A DNA stretch of 51,539 nucleotides from Candidatus Brocadiia bacterium. GTDB taxonomy: Bacteria; Planctomycetota; Brocadiia; SM23-32. The position numbers were made by a program. The DNA lies in assembly GCA_046538485.1 (NCBI GenBank), contig JBKHIT010000033.1:1-51539 (forward strand), in the 5' to 3' direction. Positions 10,601-25,600 of the stretch are shown one piece after another. Each line of letters starts with the position of its first letter. Positions within the stretch are counted from its first letter, which is position 1.

Positions 10601-13600
10601 CCGGATCGCATTCTAGAGTTGAAGGGATAATAGCTATACACGTGGAAGACAACCGCTGTATTTTAATCCGTTTTCAACCTGCCTCTCGAATTAACAATGG
10701 TTCCTGAGAGCGGATTGTTTCAAAAAGCATCCACGGTCCGACACGGTCGACGTACAGAAAATGCTCGGGGATTCGGCTGTGACGGCCACGCCATTCCAGG
10801 CCGAGTTCGTGCCATCTTTCTACCCGGTCTTGGGTGTTGATCAGGAGATATATGCGCCGACCGGTGAAATCTTCCAACAGGCTTTCGAGTTTTTGTGATT
10901 CCAAATGCATTAAATGGATCCATGCCTGTTGTTCATCGCGACCCGACGCCCGGCGAAATTCATACCCTTCGTATCCGGTGACGATGAAAGATGCATTTGG
11001 AAAACGTTGCTCCAACTCGAAAACCACTTCGCGGACCCTTGGGTCTGTGCGGCGAATCCCTGATGTGAGCAACCTCTTTCTGCCTGCGTGAATCCGGTTT
11101 CCGACGGGCCGATTGTGGGAAAAGTGGCTGTCGAAAAATATCACCGTTGCAACAATTAAAAGGGCGGCTATCCCGACAAAATTGCGAAACTTCTTACCTT
11201 TTCGGCCTGGGACAAGAGATCCCGCGGCCGGCACGCTCAGAACGAACAGCGCGACGAGTGCCAATGTCGTCCACTCACAGTTTGTCGTTAGTATCGCTCC
11301 GGCTTCGGCGGTTCCAATCCGGATCGAATGGGCCAAACCTCGCAGGAAGAAAACGGGATTTCCGAGTATTAGCCAGTTTGCTCCTATCCATAAGATAATC
11401 ACATAAACCCCTGGTGTGAAGAATGTTACAGCTGATCCTTCCAACAGGGAGGGGCTACGATGTTCGAGCAAGACGGCGCAAAAAACGAGGAGGCCAGCCA
11501 CCAAAAGGAGAAAAATTGCCTGATAACGCACGCCCACGCTTAACCCCAGAAGCAGAGCTGCATAAGCCAGGTGGCGAAGCTCAAACTGACGCAACCAGTT
11601 AAGAAGAAATCCCCATCCGCAGACAACCAGCAAGACGAAGAGCATGGTTGTCTGTCCGGAATCAATGCTCATTGCCACCGGGGGGAAAATAAGCAAACCG
11701 CACAAAGCAGGATAGCGCAACCACGGCGATACCCCTTCTGCGTGCCACAGACGGTTGGCGTACAGGATAAGTATCAGTGCAGATATTGCTGCTATCAAAG
11801 ACCAGAACAGGGGGGCGGGCTCAACCCACGGCAAGACCGATAAAATGCCGGCAAGCACCGTGGGCAGTGGGGGAAGACTCATGGATCCGACCAATCCCTG
11901 CCGGCCGCGGCTCTGTCCCTTGAGGAGATCCTGAGCTACTTTAGAACGATGTAACGCTTCTACAGACAAGCCGCTACGACTATGATTGCCGGTTATAAGA
12001 ACGAGGAACGTCACAGCTGAAAATATCCCCACTGCAAACAGTCTCTGCCGCTTTGTGGGGGATCTGTCTTCATCCGCCGTAACCTCTTCAGAGTGATCAG
12101 TTTCTTCGCGAGTCATCCTGAATGGTCGGGCCAACTCCTGGAATAAAGTAATTCCCCTTTTTTGCCCCCCGACACTAAAAATTGGAGATTACCCCTTCCC
12201 GGGCGTTATTTCAAGCGCCAAAAGATTCTTTTCGACCCCTGGGGCCTAAAAAAGGATTGACAAACGGGCGATTGTATTATAAAACAGTATAACAAATGAT
12301 CGAAAGAGATAAACATAAAAAAAGGCAGGGCCGCCCGCCGCGGGAACGAACCAAATTGGTGAAGCGTATTCGTGGCCGTATTCTTGAGGGTCAGTACGGC
12401 CCGGGAGACCGTTTACCCACTCGTAGAGAGATTAAACGTACCAGTGGAACGAGTCTCGTTACTGTACAACGGGCCTTGAGTGATCTGAAAAAGCAGGGTT
12501 TTTTGTCGGCGCGACCGGGAGATGGGACGTATGTAGTGGAACGGCCGCCTCACCTTTATCGGTACGGATTTCTCCTGCCGGCGTCACCGGATGGGCCGGG
12601 CAATCATTTTTTTAAGGCCTTACGTGCTGAAGCTTTACATTTCGAAAAACAGAGTAAGCGGGAAATGGTTTTCTATGAAGGGGTCAGCGGTCCGGTACTT
12701 TCCGATGCGTACGAGAAATTGCTCTCGGATGTACGCTCGCACCGGCTGGCCGGTTTGATTTCGCTTTCATATCCAGCATATCTCGGGGGTACGCCGATTC
12801 TGAAGGAACCGGATTTGCCACGGGTGGCAATCGGACAGGGCGAACCGCGATCAAATGCGAGCGTCGTTCGCATCGATCAGAACGAGTTCCTCAAGCGTTC
12901 GCTCAAGTATTTGCAAGAGAAAGGCCGGGAGAAAATCGCTGTTGTCCTTGTGCTGGCTTTCAGCCGATCGATGGAACCGGATGCCTGGCGTGCGCAGCTT
13001 GAACCATTGTTACAAGAACGTGGAATGACAACGAAAACAAGTTGGATCCAGGCTGTGGATTGCTACTCCGAGCACTGGGCTGCCAATACAAGCCGCCTGC
13101 TGGGGGAAATGGTGGATCGCTCCGGCCCCGATGGCCTGGTTATCGCGGATGATAACGTTGTGGAACCGGTGACCCGCGGACTTGTGGAAGCAGAAGTCAA
13201 GATACCGGAAGAACTCGAAATTGTTGCGCATTGTAATTTCCCCTGGCCCACACCCAGCGCAGCTCCCGTGAAAAGAATCGGTTTCGACCTGCACCGGGTT
13301 CTGGAATGTTGTTTCGAGTTGATTGATCGACAAAGACAAGAAGGGAAAACCCCCGGAATGCTGGAAGTCCCGCCGGTTCTGGAAGAAAATGCGACAAAAA
13401 AAGGAGATCTTCGGCAACTTTGAGTCTGGCCCGGTAAATGGCGGCGCCCTCAAGAGGATCCGCCCGGAAAGGATAATGAAAATGAATGCGCACGATGGGT
13501 ATGTAAAGGGGGGGGAAATGCCGGAAAATCCAGGGGATCTGGATGTGCGGCCGACCGAGATGCGTGCAAGAAAGACGCGAATTCTTACCTCATCTGGTTT

Positions 13601-22600: not shown

Positions 22601-25600
22601 GGCAACTTCGAGGTTTCGGTATCGCTGGATGTCCTTGGCCTGAAACCCCGCGACGGGCTGGTCATCGCGGGTGACATCGGGATTCTTCGCGGCAGCAGGG
22701 GAGTGACGATTCATCGTCTTTACTGGCACAACAAATCGACCGGCATCATCTCGGATGTGCCGGGAGAGGCCGCGTTGCGGCCCGATTTGTGGGGTCGCTG
22801 GCGGTTTGAGGTGGATTGAAAACGACCAAACCGGGTTGGAATCTTTCGGCCTGGTGGCGGGATAGGTCTTCGCGGTTTATTTTTCCTGCCCGCAGTAGCG
22901 GAATGCGCCCGATGTTTCAAGCGCTGCGGACGTTCCCGCACGGGCAAACGCCTTTGGGCATCCCAGAGGGTATGGCTGCGTGATTACCGCTCCCTCAGAA
23001 TGCAGCACAAGGAATAAGACGGGTATGCCGGAGACAGCCCTGCCGGGACCGCTGGCAACAAGGAAGTCTGAGAATATTTATCCATGACTGCTTACAAATC
23101 TATGGGGTATTGTCCAAGAGTGTGGCAGGCTTCGTAGAAAGCGAAGATATTTTTCAGTGGGGTAGTGGGCGTAATTTCGCTTGAAGACGCGATGAAATGC
23201 CCTCCTGCTGGAGAAGCGGCTCTGATACAATCTTTGACAGCGCGCCGCACGTCGTGAGGCTTTTTCCGGACAAGAGTATGGCTGGAGTCGACATTTCCGA
23301 CCAGTATAAGGCGCTCGCCATAACGTTTTTTGAGATATTTAATATCCATACCCGCGATTGGTTCGATAGGGTTGAGGCCTGCGATACCCATTTCCACCAG
23401 ATCGTCAAGAATTTCCATTATGTAGCCGTCGCTGTGGAATATGACTTTAATATTGGCAGTGGCGAGCGGTTTGATGTTCAGGGCGAGGTTGGGGAAAAAG
23501 TTCTGACGGAGCCATTCCGGTGAGAAGAGCAGGCTGTTTTTGCCGCCGATGTCTTCCCCGAGGAAAAAAAGGGGGCAAAGGCGTTCCTGTGCCACTGTTT
23601 GGGCCCACTTTGCGTTTTCTGTGGCGCGTTTTTCCAGCACAGACCGGATGAGCCCGGGATAATCTTTGCACCATTCGCAAAAAGGCTGGAATCCGGCGCT
23701 GGTGTAGAGATCTGTCAGACCGGTGCCGCCGCTGGGAACGAACATAGTGTGAGGAGAAAGATTATCCCGCATCCAGCGATAGTGCCCAAGAAGTTGGGGT
23801 TTGAGCTCAGCCCATGAATCGTTCGCGGGGGTGTTCAACTCCTCTTCCAGGTCGGCCGGGGACTGAACGTCTTTACGGGGCCAATTGGTTTGGGCTTCGT
23901 TTCTCTCCTCGGGGGTCTGCGGGGTGCAATATCCCCTGCAAAGATCAATACCCAGTTCGTTGTAGAGTCGCCCCATAGTGACCTGGGGATTTTCGTCGCC
24001 GGGTCGACGAAAATGGTTGAAGACGGTGGGGTTATTGATAAATCCCCATACCGGCACACGGTCGGGCTCCTGGTGCGAAGCAGAGGTAAGGATACGTTCT
24101 TCGACCCCCCGATCGATGTTGGTTTGCCATTGTCCCACGTTTTTGAAATCTCGAACGCTGGCTCATCCATGCTTCGACATTGAGGATGAACGGAGGAAAT
24201 AAGCGGTCATGGTTTGTATGGTTTTATCGGAGCTCAAACGGTTCTCAACTCAGCGCTGCTGTCATTGCGATTGCCTGTGCGCGGACGTTGCGAGTACAAC
24301 TATCCAACCGGTAAAAACGCCCAGATTATTTCGGCGTAGCATACGCCCGGGTGCAAAGGGCTCTTAACTGCCGTCTTGCAGTTTGTTTGAGAACTGGCTC
24401 GGGATCTTCTACCTGAATGGGTTGTTTTGGGGGTCGGAATTAGTTTGCCCATACGCGTTAGAGGCGATCCGCAATTTCGTTTTTTGCCTCCTGACCCCAT
24501 TTGTAGTATTCGAGCCGTTCGAGCTTCGAACCGGCGGCTTCGTCGACTATAACGATAGCGTTAGGATGAAGCTGAAGAGCCGAAGCGGTAAGCTGTGAAG
24601 TGATGGGGCCTTCGATACACCCCTGTACGGCATCAGCTTTACTTTCGCCGCTGGCCAGCAAGAGGCACGTCCGGGCCTGCAGTATGGTGTGGACGCCCAT
24701 GGTGACGGCGAACCGGGGCACTTCATCTTCGCTTTCGAAGAATCGGGAATTGTCTTCGATGGTTTCTGGTGCGAGGGCGACAACCTGTGTGCGGGAAGCG
24801 AGAGACGAGCCGGGCTCGTTGAAACCAAGGTGTCCGTCGCGGCCGATTCCCAGGACCTGGAGGTCAACCCCCCCGGCTTCTTGAATCATGTTTTCATACT
24901 GGAGACAGTATTGGCCGAGGTCTTCGGCGAGCCCATCCGGAACATAGGTGTTTTCTTCAGGGATATTGATGTCGTTGAAAAGGTGCTCATCCATGAAGTA
25001 ACGGTAGCTTTGTTCATGATCGGGCGGCAGGTCAACGTATTCATCCAGGTTGAAAGTGGTAACTTCCGAAAAATCGATCTTGTCATTCTGGTTTGCCGCA
25101 ATTAAGCGATCGTAGAGTCCGATCGGGGTGCTTCCGGTGGCCAGCCCGAGGACCATATCGGGTTTGTCTTTCAGTGATGAGATGGCAACTTGAGCGGCTA
25201 AATCGCTCATTTTTTCATAGTCATCTGTAATAACAACTTCCATTTTGCTCTCCGTTCAGATGAAAAGGGGCCAGAGATATTTTACTGGGACTCAGTCTTC
25301 GAGATATTCGCTGATGAAGTCGACCGCGTCGCCGACGGATTGGACTTCGAGAGCAGCTTCTTCGTCCATTTCAATATCGAATTCTTCTTCAAAAGCTGCG
25401 ACCAGTTCGAGGCTTTGAATGGATTCGGCGCCAAGATCAGCAATAAAGTCATCCGTTTCCACGATATCGCTCTCGGGGACGCCCAGGATGTCGCTGACAA
25501 CTTCCTTCACTCGCTGTAGTACTTCACTTCGTTCCATCAGGAGCACTCCTTTCTCAGATGGATGTTATGATGGTTACCTGATTTTCTTTCGGTCTTTGCG

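Follow-up and report, generated by a model that had tools for sequence, protein, structure and literature searches.

A gene cassette recurs in this planctomycete genome: a sugar-sensing regulator is followed by a pilin-like gene and then by a large secreted protein or CAZyme. We confirm the cassette and find its gene order strongly non-random. Judging from gene order and spacing, about half of the sugar-sensing repressor genes appear to be followed by a pilin-like gene of their own in the same operon, and we found no description in print of a pairing of these regulators with pilin genes. One such cassette lies in the window (the whole stretch of 51,539 nucleotides that was analysed, contig JBKHIT010000033.1 of a Candidatus Brocadiia bacterium), and its features are listed in Table 1.

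Table 1. Features of the regulator-pilin cassette in the window (positions count from the first nucleotide of the window)
Feature	Position	Strand	Evidence
Whole cassette	regulator 12296-13423, pilin-like gene 13476/13560-13976, giants 14040-18047 and 18539-22819	all +	
Putative promoter/operator of the cassette	12257..12296	+	Read from the sequence; putative function
AraR-type transcription regulator (predicted), 375 aa	12296..13423	+	Pfam PF00392 55.3 bits (cut-off 27; residues 21-80), PF13377 31.7 bits (cut-off 26.5; residues 204-353)
Pilin-like (pseudopilin-like) gene	13476..13976	+	N_methyl 30.6 bits (cut-off 21.2)
Giant 1, 1335 aa	14040..18047	+	Translation; CBM9_1 52.2 bits
Giant 2, 1426 aa	18539..22819	+	Translation; NHL and FlgD_ig matches
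Terminator-like hairpin with T-rich tail	22857..22873	+	Consensus scan

Genome-wide, 33 matches to the GntR helix-turn-helix (HTH) family PF00392 were found, close to the 32 GntR regulators of the initial annotation. In 17 cases the HTH is followed on its own strand, at a distance of 1038-1458 nt, by an N_methyl match. The case on contig C71 has a truncated regulator frame (148 aa), leaving 16 intact downstream pairs; with the C18 regulator, whose pilin gene is directly upstream, the total of adjacent pairs is 18. This reproduces the earlier count of 18 adjacent regulators, 16 of them with the pilin gene downstream. The claim that the adjacency is non-random was borne out by our own permutation. 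Using crude gene calls (the caller gave no gene for two of the 33 GntR matches and missed the C73 pilin), 15 of 31 regulators have a same-strand downstream pilin gene, against 0.51 +/- 0.70 for random non-pilin genes (maximum 5 in 5000 draws). With a pilin gene on either side allowed, the count is 16 of 31 against 1.36 +/- 1.14 (maximum 6, 5000 draws). Downstream of the 28 AraR-like regulators, pilin genes number 16, 7, 8, 4 and 0 at positions +1 to +5, where the figure of 16 counts a fused frame on C3 twice, and 20 of the 28 have at least one pilin gene within five genes.

The window regulator combines an N-terminal winged HTH of GntR type with a C-terminal LacI/GalR-type sugar-binding domain (Peripla_BP_3). 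The latter domain scored above its cut-off in 24 of the 31 GntR-match proteins scanned (all but C51:32024 and C71:36632), the same number as previously reported. A profile built from 26 regulator paralogs matches CcpA, PurR and LacI as well as the effector domain of Bacillus subtilis AraR (3tb6, E 1.2e-29), and its N-terminus matches the GntR-type regulator YvoA. By these matches the regulators are predicted AraR-type sugar sensors, with a GntR HTH and a LacI-type sugar domain. The paralogs share only 15-38% identity with the regulator of the window.

Promoter signals and gene spacing point to operon structure. A strict sigma-70-like pattern (TTGAC[AGT]-N16-18-TAnnnT) is present upstream of 20 of the 28 AraR-like regulators, compared to 203 of 3238 crude genes (6.3%), and in several cases (C20, C53, C127, C64 and C3) palindromes overlap the -10 box or come after it. 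The same strict pattern was found at none of 41 regulator-pilin junctions, where the two genes lie a median of 36 nt apart and in four cases overlap by 4 nt. Strong promoters before the regulators, their absence from the junctions and the short gaps together fit autoregulated operons. Sequence signals suggest that the cassette forms one transcription unit, starting at the promoter of the regulator and possibly inducible as a whole. Among sequencing runs on record as RNA, none contains this DNA. In the window, the candidate promoter (TTGACA at 12257-12262, TATAAA at 12278-12283) fails the strict pattern with its 15-nt spacer and TATAAA -10 box. As a putative operator there is no more than a weak repeat, comprising a weak palindrome at 12273-12286 and an AT-rich repeat or palindrome after the -10 box, TTGTATTATAA ... 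CAGTATAACAA, which runs into the start codon. The hairpin behind giant 2 is likely to mark the end of the transcription unit, but it counts as weak evidence since the consensus scan gave 14.1 +/- 3.8 terminator-like sites even in shuffled sequences, compared to 20 in the region.

The pilin family is large and sharply divided into a constant and a variable part. We found 136 matches to N_methyl (PF07963), near the 134 pseudopilin genes reported initially, and 71 matches to PF07596; most partner pilins carry both domains. Mature residues 1-26 are at least 90% conserved across 126 paralogs. For identical stem residues the codon agreement is 0.41, compared to 0.37 expected from codon usage, which points to purifying selection on the stem and argues against gene conversion as the cause of its constancy. 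Synonymous sites in the stem are saturated, and the stem varies slightly between genomes. The heads, on the other hand, are almost unalignable (mean column identity 16%), and 40 of the 126 have no detectable paralog; among about 1.8 billion cluster representatives only 2 reached E<=1e-30, while 227,447 reached 1e-3. When the model of a 308-aa paralog was compared by VIA-align, its 15 best rows were without exception type IV pilins or type II secretion system (T2SS) pseudopilins, including PilA4 (Z 6.4), EpsG (Z 5.7) and PulG (Z 4.9), and the heads are accordingly predicted to have the pilin fold. They are rich in Trp (4.10% vs 1.67% in other proteins), Tyr (6.71% vs 2.92%) and Asn (5.73% vs 3.24%), and their median Trp content is reached by only 1.1% of other proteins. 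Carbohydrate-binding proteins typically have surfaces rich in aromatic residues, and as a sign of glycan binding this composition is only suggestive.

A constant stem with a unique head is consistent with a modular component of a shared machine, and to this extent the earlier proposal of a modular pseudopilus stands. Specificity would predict that heads co-vary with their partners, but no head type in our tests matched an enzyme type or a regulator type. Regulator similarity and head similarity were not significantly correlated in any comparison (Mantel r -0.10, 0.24, -0.06 and 0.06), and pilins preceding DUF4838 enzymes or family-A giants were no more alike than others. Even in cassettes with an orthologous regulator and giant, the heads are at most 28% identical, except for one close pair of contigs. 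Substrate specificity and diversifying selection on a surface protein account equally well for heads that evolve this fast.

Among the paralogs, the pilin of the window is the most atypical. Its open reading frame is listed as 13323-13976, and its start is uncertain: ATG 13476, which has GGAAAGGA just upstream and follows the regulator stop by 52 nt, or alternatively ATG 13560. It has a class III signal with Gly at -1 and Glu at +5 and scores above the cut-off of TIGR02532, whereas its GspG score (TIGR01710, 44.1 bits) is below the cut-off of 88.85. PF07596 gave no match in it. The mature protein has 126 aa, compared to a paralog median of 263, and the head bears no likeness to that of any other paralog at E<1e-3. 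In the AF2 model (mean pLDDT 70.2), a helix at 16-66 and a hairpin at 118-128 are separated by a low-confidence stretch at 72-113. The protein contains one Cys and is modelled, at low confidence, as hardly more than a hairpin.

Behind the window pilin, giant 1 carries a Sec-type signal peptide (judged by eye), and its Ig-like module and NHL beta-propeller lie between two CBM9-like modules, one N-terminal and one C-terminal; giant 2 also has a signal peptide, together with an Ig-like module, an NHL propeller and, at its C-terminus, a CBM9-like part. The two are paralogous (phmmer, E 1.8e-103) and belong to a family of about 17-21 members in this genome, whose profile matches NHL propellers in PDB; Atlas clusters with the CBM9_1+FlgD_ig+NHL architecture were found in PVC phyla. 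The "giant enzyme" behind the pilin is here better described as a putatively secreted giant, since the CBM9-like, FlgD-Ig and NHL propeller modules of the window's giants include no recognised catalytic domain. A gene of at least 900 aa directly follows 28 of 126 pilin genes, compared to 3.4% for other genes, and 22 of 236 genes of at least 900 aa have a pilin gene directly upstream. Across the cassettes, the downstream genes appear glycan-related from their domains: GH123_N-like giants, DUF4838, GH71, GH130, sulfatases, an alginate lyase and a BNR sialidase-like protein, in line with the giants, glycoside hydrolases and sulfatases originally reported there.

The initial annotation held that conservation could not be tested in close kin and that the pair is near each other in only 0-1 of 31 genomes of the order. 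A profile search corrects this picture. The 26-paralog profile retrieves full-length regulator relatives in the same-family genomes G155, G168, G167 and G173 and large regulator expansions in three genomes of the same class. In the same-class genomes G177, G183 and G181, the pairing recurs, with a pilin motif at most 500 nt downstream of 9/21, 9/18 and 6/10 regulators, respectively (24/49), and a divergent pilin beside six more. Behind these pilins we found DUF4838, a LamG-type lectin or glucanase, GH78, GH20 and a GDSL esterase. In metagenome loci with regulators 30-48% identical, a pilin lies within 400 nt in 13 of 44, and five of the seven large downstream proteins tested there belong to the family of the window's giants (E 3e-101 to 5e-202). 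The distribution is nevertheless patchy: in five nearer relatives (G155, G168, G175, G176 and G167) none of the 9 regulators examined has the pairing, and elsewhere in the phylum it is rare, with 2 cases among 67 regulators.

We give an even chance to the explanation that we prefer, namely that the locus is a sugar-controlled operon with its own AraR-type repressor, a private pilin-like subunit and large Sec-secreted proteins that bind or degrade glycan. Without sugar, the repressor would occupy an operator beside the sigma-70-type promoter of its own gene and keep expression of the whole unit low; a sugar from the target glycan would bind the LacI-type domain, and regulator, pilin and secreted proteins would be de-repressed together. 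A shared prepilin peptidase would then cleave the pilin after Gly-1, and by its near-invariant N-terminal helix the pilin would enter a shared machine, either for type II secretion or for a type IV filament. The genome encodes 2 prepilin peptidases, 3 secretins and about 10 GspE/PilB-type ATPases, and in one cluster, on C109, five pilin genes lie beside such ATPases. The head, of pilin fold and rich in Trp, Tyr and Asn, would be the only locus-specific part; its most likely role would be to hold or display the glycan, in the periplasm or on the cell surface, next to the secreted proteins expressed with it. The make-up of the filament would follow the sugars on offer, which hints at a shared pilus-type machine fitted with a different head per sugar.

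An alternative that we consider unlikely is that the private pilin is a minor pseudopilin in the tip or body of a T2SS pseudopilus, where it would recognise the co-encoded giant or enzyme and drive its export through the secretin. The frequent position of pilin genes directly before large proteins, the Sec signal peptides on both window giants, the T2SS parts in the genome and the conservation of the regulator-pilin-giant trio in metagenome contigs all agree with such a role, and T2SS export of alginate lyases is suggested by the authors of PMC13274419 in the part of that paper available to us. But the heads lack similarity inside groups that share a cargo family, so that unrelated heads would need to recognise conserved giants; the GspG score is below the family cut-off, and the pilin genes are outside any gsp operon. 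Less likely again is a membrane-anchored periplasmic or surface binding protein, in which the class III signal would serve only for anchoring and processing and the head would bind or scaffold oligosaccharides for uptake, bindosome-like and with no filament. Here the filing of DUF1559 as SBP_bac_10 in Pfam and the aromatic-rich heads are consistent, as are Tuwongella proteins with N_methyl and SBP_bac_10 that fractionate with membranes (PMC8567305, as far as the text available goes) and Sulfolobus sugar-binding proteins with class III signals that need a pilin-type assembly system (PMC3047682, likewise). Against it, the modelled head has the pilin fold rather than that of a periplasmic binding protein, a scan of ORFs in the window cassette revealed no ABC transporter genes, and the 26-residue helix is conserved beyond the needs of a membrane anchor, as filament packing and platform contacts would require. 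Least likely of all is the absence of any specific functional tie, with pilins simply common in glycan loci, gene order a legacy of cassette spread and head diversity an escape from phages or predators: genomes with the pairing are indeed richest in pilin genes (136, 121 and 88 vs 25-37 in three other regulator-rich genomes), regulator, head and enzyme do not co-vary and heads evolve much faster than their neighbours, but this fails to account for the strong preference for position +1, the tight or overlapping promoter-free gaps between regulator and pilin, the order kept across families and in divergent metagenome loci, and the age of the pairs, which are no recent copies given the low regulator identity and the saturated stem.

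Several known systems resemble parts of the cassette. Like AraR of B. subtilis, the regulators have a chimeric two-domain architecture of GntR-type HTH and LacI/GalR-type effector domain, and the regulator gene apparently heads sugar-utilisation genes, with palindromes near the promoter. Unlike AraR, the family is here expanded to about 28 copies, of low identity even between paralogs in one genome, and the first gene predicted to be regulated is usually a pilin, an arrangement that is not known for AraR. The cassette pilins share with GspG, PulG, EpsG and type IV pilins the class III signal, the long hydrophobic N-terminal helix, the predicted head fold and a genome with prepilin peptidase, secretins and ATPases. 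They differ in the low GspG score of the window pilin, in their position outside gsp or pil operons and in numbering 126-136 paralogs with unique heads, scattered in glycan loci behind sugar regulators. Most partner pilins also belong to the DUF1559/SBP_bac_10 (PF07596) prepilin-like family, which is expanded in Planctomycetes, although the window's pilin has no match to it, and the published accounts, in the portions available, draw no tie between that family and GntR/AraR-type regulators or sugar control.

Three further systems are described here from the accessible parts of their reports. In Verruconatronum alginivorum, one of the 67 PulG-like paralogs stands first in a row of genes that includes a PL29 lyase and proteins with signal peptides; its protein was detected only on alginate (0.513 vs 0 and 0, Table S3; PMC13274419). 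This organism is of another phylum (verrucomicrobial), in the table rows covered no regulator adjoins the PulG-like gene, whose neighbour is a divergent Na+/solute symporter, and the authors see a T2SS part and, in those parts, do not discuss private pilins per locus. In the Sulfolobus solfataricus bindosome, sugar-handling surface proteins with class III signals likewise depend on a pilin-type assembly system (PMC3047682). It is archaeal, however, and built of genuine binding proteins of ABC transporters; the cassette has predicted pilin-fold heads and no ABC transporter. In the planctomycetes Planctopirus and Gemmata, pili-like fibres on crateriform structures bind polysaccharide, as seen with gold-labelled dextran (PMC5394234). 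These belong to a different class, and in the same parts the fibre subunits are unnamed and neither DUF1559 nor regulators are linked to the fibres; dextran binding by planctomycete fibres is the cell-level behaviour that the cassette would explain.

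The cassette occupies the forward strand as a row of four genes, in which an AraR-type regulator is followed by a pilin-like gene and by two genes for large secreted proteins (giants 1 and 2). Its surroundings (ParB, ack-pta, ArgRS, a sulfatase and GH127) combine housekeeping and sugar genes. A gene of the uroporphyrinogen decarboxylase family (URO-D-like) adjoins it (23092-24138, -), as another does at a second regulator locus (L016:2997-4088, -).

Features of the regulator-pilin-giant cassette and its flanks
Feature	Position	Strand or location	Remark
TTGACA	12257-12262	5' of regulator	read from sequence
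TATAAA	12278-12283	5' of regulator	15-nt spacer from TTGACA
AT-rich repeat	after TATAAA, reaching into regulator start codon		read from sequence
Regulator, 375 aa	12296-13423	+	first in four-gene row
Small ORF with prepilin signal	13323-13976 as listed; probable start ATG 13476 or 13560	+	second in row
Giant 1, 1335 aa	14040-18047	+	third in row
Giant 2, 1426 aa	18539-22819	+	fourth in row
Terminator-like hairpin	22857-22873	after giant 2	consensus scan

The regulator carries a GntR-type HTH at its N-terminus (PF00392, 55.3 bits against a cut-off of 27, residues 21-80) and a sugar-binding domain of the LacI/GalR type at its C-terminus (Peripla_BP_3, PF13377, 31.7 bits against 26.5, residues 204-353). 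A profile of its paralogs matches CcpA, PurR, LacI and the AraR effector domain 3tb6 (E 1.2e-29), and the N-terminal part of that profile matches the GntR-type HTH of YvoA. By domain content, these regulators have the architecture of AraR, a GntR HTH joined to a LacI/GalR-type sugar domain. The genome holds 33 GntR (PF00392) matches; among the 31 such proteins scanned, 24 have Peripla_BP_3 above cut-off, and the others include two of FCD type, one DeoR cross-hit and one with an SBP_bac_8 domain.

The initial annotation proposed that sugar-sensor regulators of this kind are each paired with a private pseudopilin in glycan loci, and the pairing is confirmed and extended by our counts. With crude gene calls, a pilin (a protein with a class III, or prepilin, signal) is the next gene downstream in 15 of 31 regulators, compared with 0.51 +/- 0.70 for random non-pilin genes (maximum 5 in 5000 draws). 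For seventeen regulators, one of them a truncated frame, the HTH is followed on its own strand by an N_methyl match at a distance of 1038-1458 nt, and one further regulator has a pilin directly upstream. The first position after AraR-like regulators is preferred (16, 7, 8, 4 and 0 pilins at +1 to +5), and 20 of the 28 have at least one pilin within five genes.

Several paired loci are unusual in structure. At C3:99640-101631 (-) (L024:9103-11094), regulator and pilin share one stop-free frame of 663-670 aa, with the GntR HTH at residues 32-94 and N_methyl at 378-400, followed by two more pilins and a 1332-aa protein; the stop codon may have been lost, the sequence may contain an error, or the fusion may be real. 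A 566-aa frame at C51:39292-40992 (+) (L033:2393-4093) fuses an N-terminal sulfatase portion (residues 8-223) to an AraR-like effector C-terminus and is immediately followed by a pilin and a member of the window's giant family; it resembles the remnant of a rearrangement in which the HTH was lost. On C44, the cassette regulator has SBP_bac_8 instead of Peripla_BP_3, and a group II intron reverse transcriptase/maturase (RVT_1 and GIIM; L029:5518-6792, -) sits just behind the two pilins.

The arginyl-tRNA synthetase encoded in the window is 63-65% identical to those of 'Candidatus Brocadiaceae bacterium' MAGs and 47-51% identical to those of Kuenenia and Brocadia, which places the genome in a non-anammox branch of the planctomycete class that contains the anammox bacteria. 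Acetate kinase and phosphotransacetylase genes lie side by side at 26971-29197 (-), and a fermentative lifestyle of this anammox-class relative fits that pair. No regulators of this kind were found in the seven genomes searched of the anammox-like family (f2). In a search with a profile built from 26 paralogs, several members of the genome's own family yield full-length relatives, and three genomes from its class (G177, G181 and G183) show expansions, with at least 36-49 scored matches. In these three, a prepilin motif follows within 500 nt on the same strand for 9/21 (G177), 9/18 (G183, counting regulators with room downstream) and 6/10 (G181) regulators. Six more regulators there (L094, L098, L099, L100, L117 and L127) have a divergent pilin, with its motif on the opposite strand some 200-400 nt ahead of the regulator, a second arrangement around the same control region. 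The partner pilins are about 430-450 aa long, and behind them come DUF4838, LamG-type, GH78, GH20 or GDSL proteins, or further pilins.

Outside these genomes the pairing is scarce. None of the nine regulators examined in five nearer relatives has a pilin beside it; in the rest of the phylum, pairing occurs at one of the best 27 loci, with one divergent case besides, and in seven regulator-rich genomes elsewhere in the phylum at 1/40 regulators. Three of these seven have 25-37 N_methyl matches, compared with 88-136 in three pairing genomes (G181 left out). Public metagenomes contain it again: among loci whose regulator is 30-48% identical to the window's and which have room downstream, 13/44 carry a prepilin motif no more than 400 nt behind that regulator. 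Because the stems (N-terminal helices) of these pilins are of many types, we read the loci as coming from many different organisms. In the ten inspected, the same gene order comes up again, from a regulator through one or two DUF1559 pilins to a large protein; of seven such large proteins tested, five fall into the giant family of the window (E 3e-101 to 5e-202). Since both order and giant family recur, the window trio is a conserved cassette. The heads (the part beyond the stem) in conserved cassettes are at most 28% identical, except in one close pair of contigs.

The window pilin has a prepilin signal with Gly-1, Phe+1 and Glu+5 followed by a hydrophobic helix, and matches N_methyl (PF07963) at 30.6 bits and TIGR02532 at 31.1 bits (cut-off 16.3). 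It scores 44.1 bits against GspG (TIGR01710), under the curated cut-off of 88.85. The structural model consists of a helix (16-66), a low-confidence loop (pLDDT below 50 at 76-113) and one hairpin. PF07596 (DUF1559/SBP_bac_10) gives no match at E<=0.01, unlike in many regulator-partner pilins, so the protein is at best a divergent or reduced DUF1559 relative; judged from sequence and model, it is a reduced member of the pilin set. The C-terminal motif of the DUF1559 family, which we take from its TIGRFAM description to be His-X9-Asp-Gly, has a counterpart with X8 spacing in the window pilin, and paralogs have conserved H...G.N...DG columns; the motif model itself is absent from the protein's NCBIfam scan matches. 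Its head is without a detectable paralog in the genome.

Genome-wide there are 136 N_methyl and 71 DUF1559 (PF07596) matches, and the pilins combine one stem with many heads. The first 26 residues of the mature protein are at least 90% conserved across 126 paralogs. Codons agree at identical stem residues with a frequency of 0.41, near the 0.37 expected from codon usage, and the stem thus seems to be kept by selection on the protein rather than by gene conversion. It varies slightly by genome, with AAMLMPAL here and AGMLLPAL among the forms in relatives. Past about residue 45 the paralogs barely align (mean column identity 16%, with a few Cys, His and Asp-Gly columns conserved), and for 40 of the 126 heads the genome contains no recognizable paralog. 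When one 308-aa paralog was compared with 1.8 billion cluster representatives, only 2 of 227,447 matches at E<=1e-3 reached E<=1e-30. The 15 best structural matches of its model (pLDDT 68.7) are all pilins or pseudopilins at middling Z-scores (PilA4 6.4, EpsG 5.7, PulG 4.9); a Foldseek search of the PDB gave nothing at E<=0.001, with pilins on top through the helix only. Relative to other proteins the heads are rich in Trp (2.45x), Tyr (2.3x) and Asn (1.8x), a composition common in carbohydrate-binding proteins. At C57:29834-29902 (L010:3643-3912), the pilin behind the regulator is only 89 aa long, its stem ending after ...AILAAM, with a DUF4838 protein next; it is probably a broken copy.

Both giants start with a Sec-type signal peptide, as judged by eye, and are paralogs of each other (E 1.8e-103) within a genome-wide family of about 17-21 members. 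Their modules are CBM9-like, Ig-like FlgD and NHL beta-propeller. Pfam, PDB sequence and family-profile comparisons revealed no catalytic domain in either: phmmer with giant 1 against PDB sequences found no match, and the family profile found only NHL propellers, FlgD-Ig and, weakly, CBM9. Invariant residues of the family are densest in the stretch that links the Ig-like module to the propeller, residues ~340-445 of giant 1 (e.g. W340, G342, Y368, P392, P393, W403, H407, E428 and K442), which may serve in catalysis or binding. The two genes are separated by 491 nt (18048-18538) with GC-rich inverted repeats at 18251-18285 and 18302-18347; these repeats may mark an attenuator or separate control of giant 2. 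A gene of at least 900 aa directly follows 28/126 pilin genes, compared with 3.4% of other genes. The genes behind pilins include those for GH123_N-like giants, DUF4838, GH71, GH130, sulfatases, alginate lyase and a BNR sialidase-like protein; many large proteins there are without a Pfam match, as are the small ORFs (~150 aa) after some pilins (L004, L012 and L031). Proteins of the SusC/SusD kind are absent among the general Pfam matches of the scanned loci, a statement that involves no dedicated SusC/SusD search.

The consensus promoter scan flagged nothing 5' of the window regulator, and the promoter read there misses the strict pattern TTGAC[AGT]-N16-18-TAnnnT because of its shorter spacer. 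The pattern occurs within 260 nt upstream of the HTH in 20/28 AraR-like regulators, compared with 203/3238 crude genes, and in 0/41 regulator-pilin junctions of four genomes. At these 41 junctions the gap to the farthest in-frame ATG has a median of 36 nt, and four show a 4-nt overlap. Inverted repeats in the window's intergenic regions comprise a weak palindrome (12273-12286) and those between the giants, and several paralogs have clearer palindromes overlapping or following the -10; these palindromes are candidate operators for a sugar-released regulator. From the AraR architecture, the promoters 5' of the regulators and the tight, promoter-less junctions, we infer on good grounds that the cassette is co-transcribed and autoregulated. 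Of the sequencing runs on record as RNA, none contains positions 12200-15200 of the window.

Taken as a whole chain, the reading we favor has about an even chance of being correct. Sugar would de-repress an operon whose pilin would equip a common type IV filament or T2SS machine with a locus-specific head, and secreted glycan-handling proteins would be expressed along with this private head. We hold the operon part with greater confidence than the whole. The reading makes no claim that the pilin binds the giant. Machinery of this kind is present in the genome (two prepilin peptidases, three secretins and about ten GspE/PilB-type ATPases), and a cluster on C109, with five pilin genes next to such ATPases, could be the core machine.

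Comparisons of heads with regulators and cargo gave no signal. After two of 42 pairs had been dropped beforehand (regulator below 300 aa or pilin below 120 aa), regulator and head showed no sign of duplicating together (Mantel r -0.10, 0.24, -0.06 and 0.06), and the partner of the nearest regulator was the nearest head in 1/15, 0/9, 0/10 and 2/6 pairs. Nor was head type tied to enzyme type for the DUF4838 and LamG groups or for family-A giants. Heads matched to sugar or cargo should be similar where regulators or enzymes are similar, which is not observed; the tests are weak at this depth of divergence, and fast head evolution for other reasons, e.g. cell-surface exposure, is left open.

That the private pilin serves as a cargo adaptor for secretion is doubtful: large secreted proteins do follow pilins far more often than other genes, and similar enzymes do not have similar heads. 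Less likely again is an anchored binding protein that forms no filament, a role to which the aromatic-rich heads could be suited but against which the pilin-like matches of the modeled paralog speak. The absence of any specific tie between regulator and pilin is improbable; the lack of matching among regulators, heads and enzymes speaks for it, the preferred first position and the tight, promoter-less junctions against it.

The sugar-released operon with a private pilin head can be extended, tentatively, to a programmable type IV filament of the PVC lineage, in which one assembly machine would take more than 100 pilins of the same stem and each AraR-type sensor would turn on its own pilin head along with matching secreted proteins, re-tooling the fibre for the glycan at hand; DUF1559-type pilins would then be subunits of planctomycete polysaccharide-binding fibres. 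If true, this would give a function to the phylum's largest paralog family and provide a stand-in for SusD-like proteins. Through the cassette, single pilin paralogs are linked to single sugar sensors and to secreted glycan-handling proteins, such that each regulator/promoter pair predicts an inducer and each pilin a substrate-dependent change of fibre or envelope. Should the heads bind glycans, the loci would represent a novel class of polysaccharide utilisation locus and offer a large reservoir of carbohydrate-binding modules; should they be cargo adaptors, the loci would illustrate how one T2SS can be redirected. How PVC bacteria bind and import polysaccharides in the absence of SusC/D-type systems is the wider question behind these loci.

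Our literature searches, in which few subscription journals were covered, found no published description of the regulator-pilin pairing. Earlier reports describe the DUF1559 expansion and give its function as unknown (PMC10632474, PMC2754498, PMC8567305), with these prepilin-like proteins forming the biggest planctomycete paralog family (68-100 copies in the cultured species cited there). According to a recent survey, Planctomycetota CAZyme clusters are without functional characterisation, and a term search of its text found no mention of pilins (PMC11131199). In Verruconatronum alginivorum, according to a 2026 paper, one of 67 PulG-like paralogs heads a row of lyase genes, and its protein was found only on alginate (Table S3, PMC13274419). 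Unlike in the cassette, no regulator adjoins that gene in the Table S3 rows examined, and the paper draws no general rule (PMC13274419). Pili-like fibres of Planctopirus and Gemmata bind gold-labelled dextran (PMC5394234).

The bindosome of Sulfolobus offers a functional parallel, if a remote one (PMC3047682). There a class III signal is borne by an ABC solute-binding fold encoded with a transporter, whereas here the head, as modeled for a paralog, would have a pilin fold. No transporter domains were detected in the cassette ORFs scanned. Like GspG, the window pilin has a prepilin signal; unlike GspG, it falls under the family cut-off and sits outside any gsp operon, its neighbours being the regulator and the giants, with T2SSE matches on other contigs. 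The window regulator resembles AraR-type regulators in its GntR winged HTH and LacI/GalR-type domain, both over cut-off. Overall, the cassette combines known kinds of system, namely AraR-type regulons, pseudopilins and polysaccharide loci.
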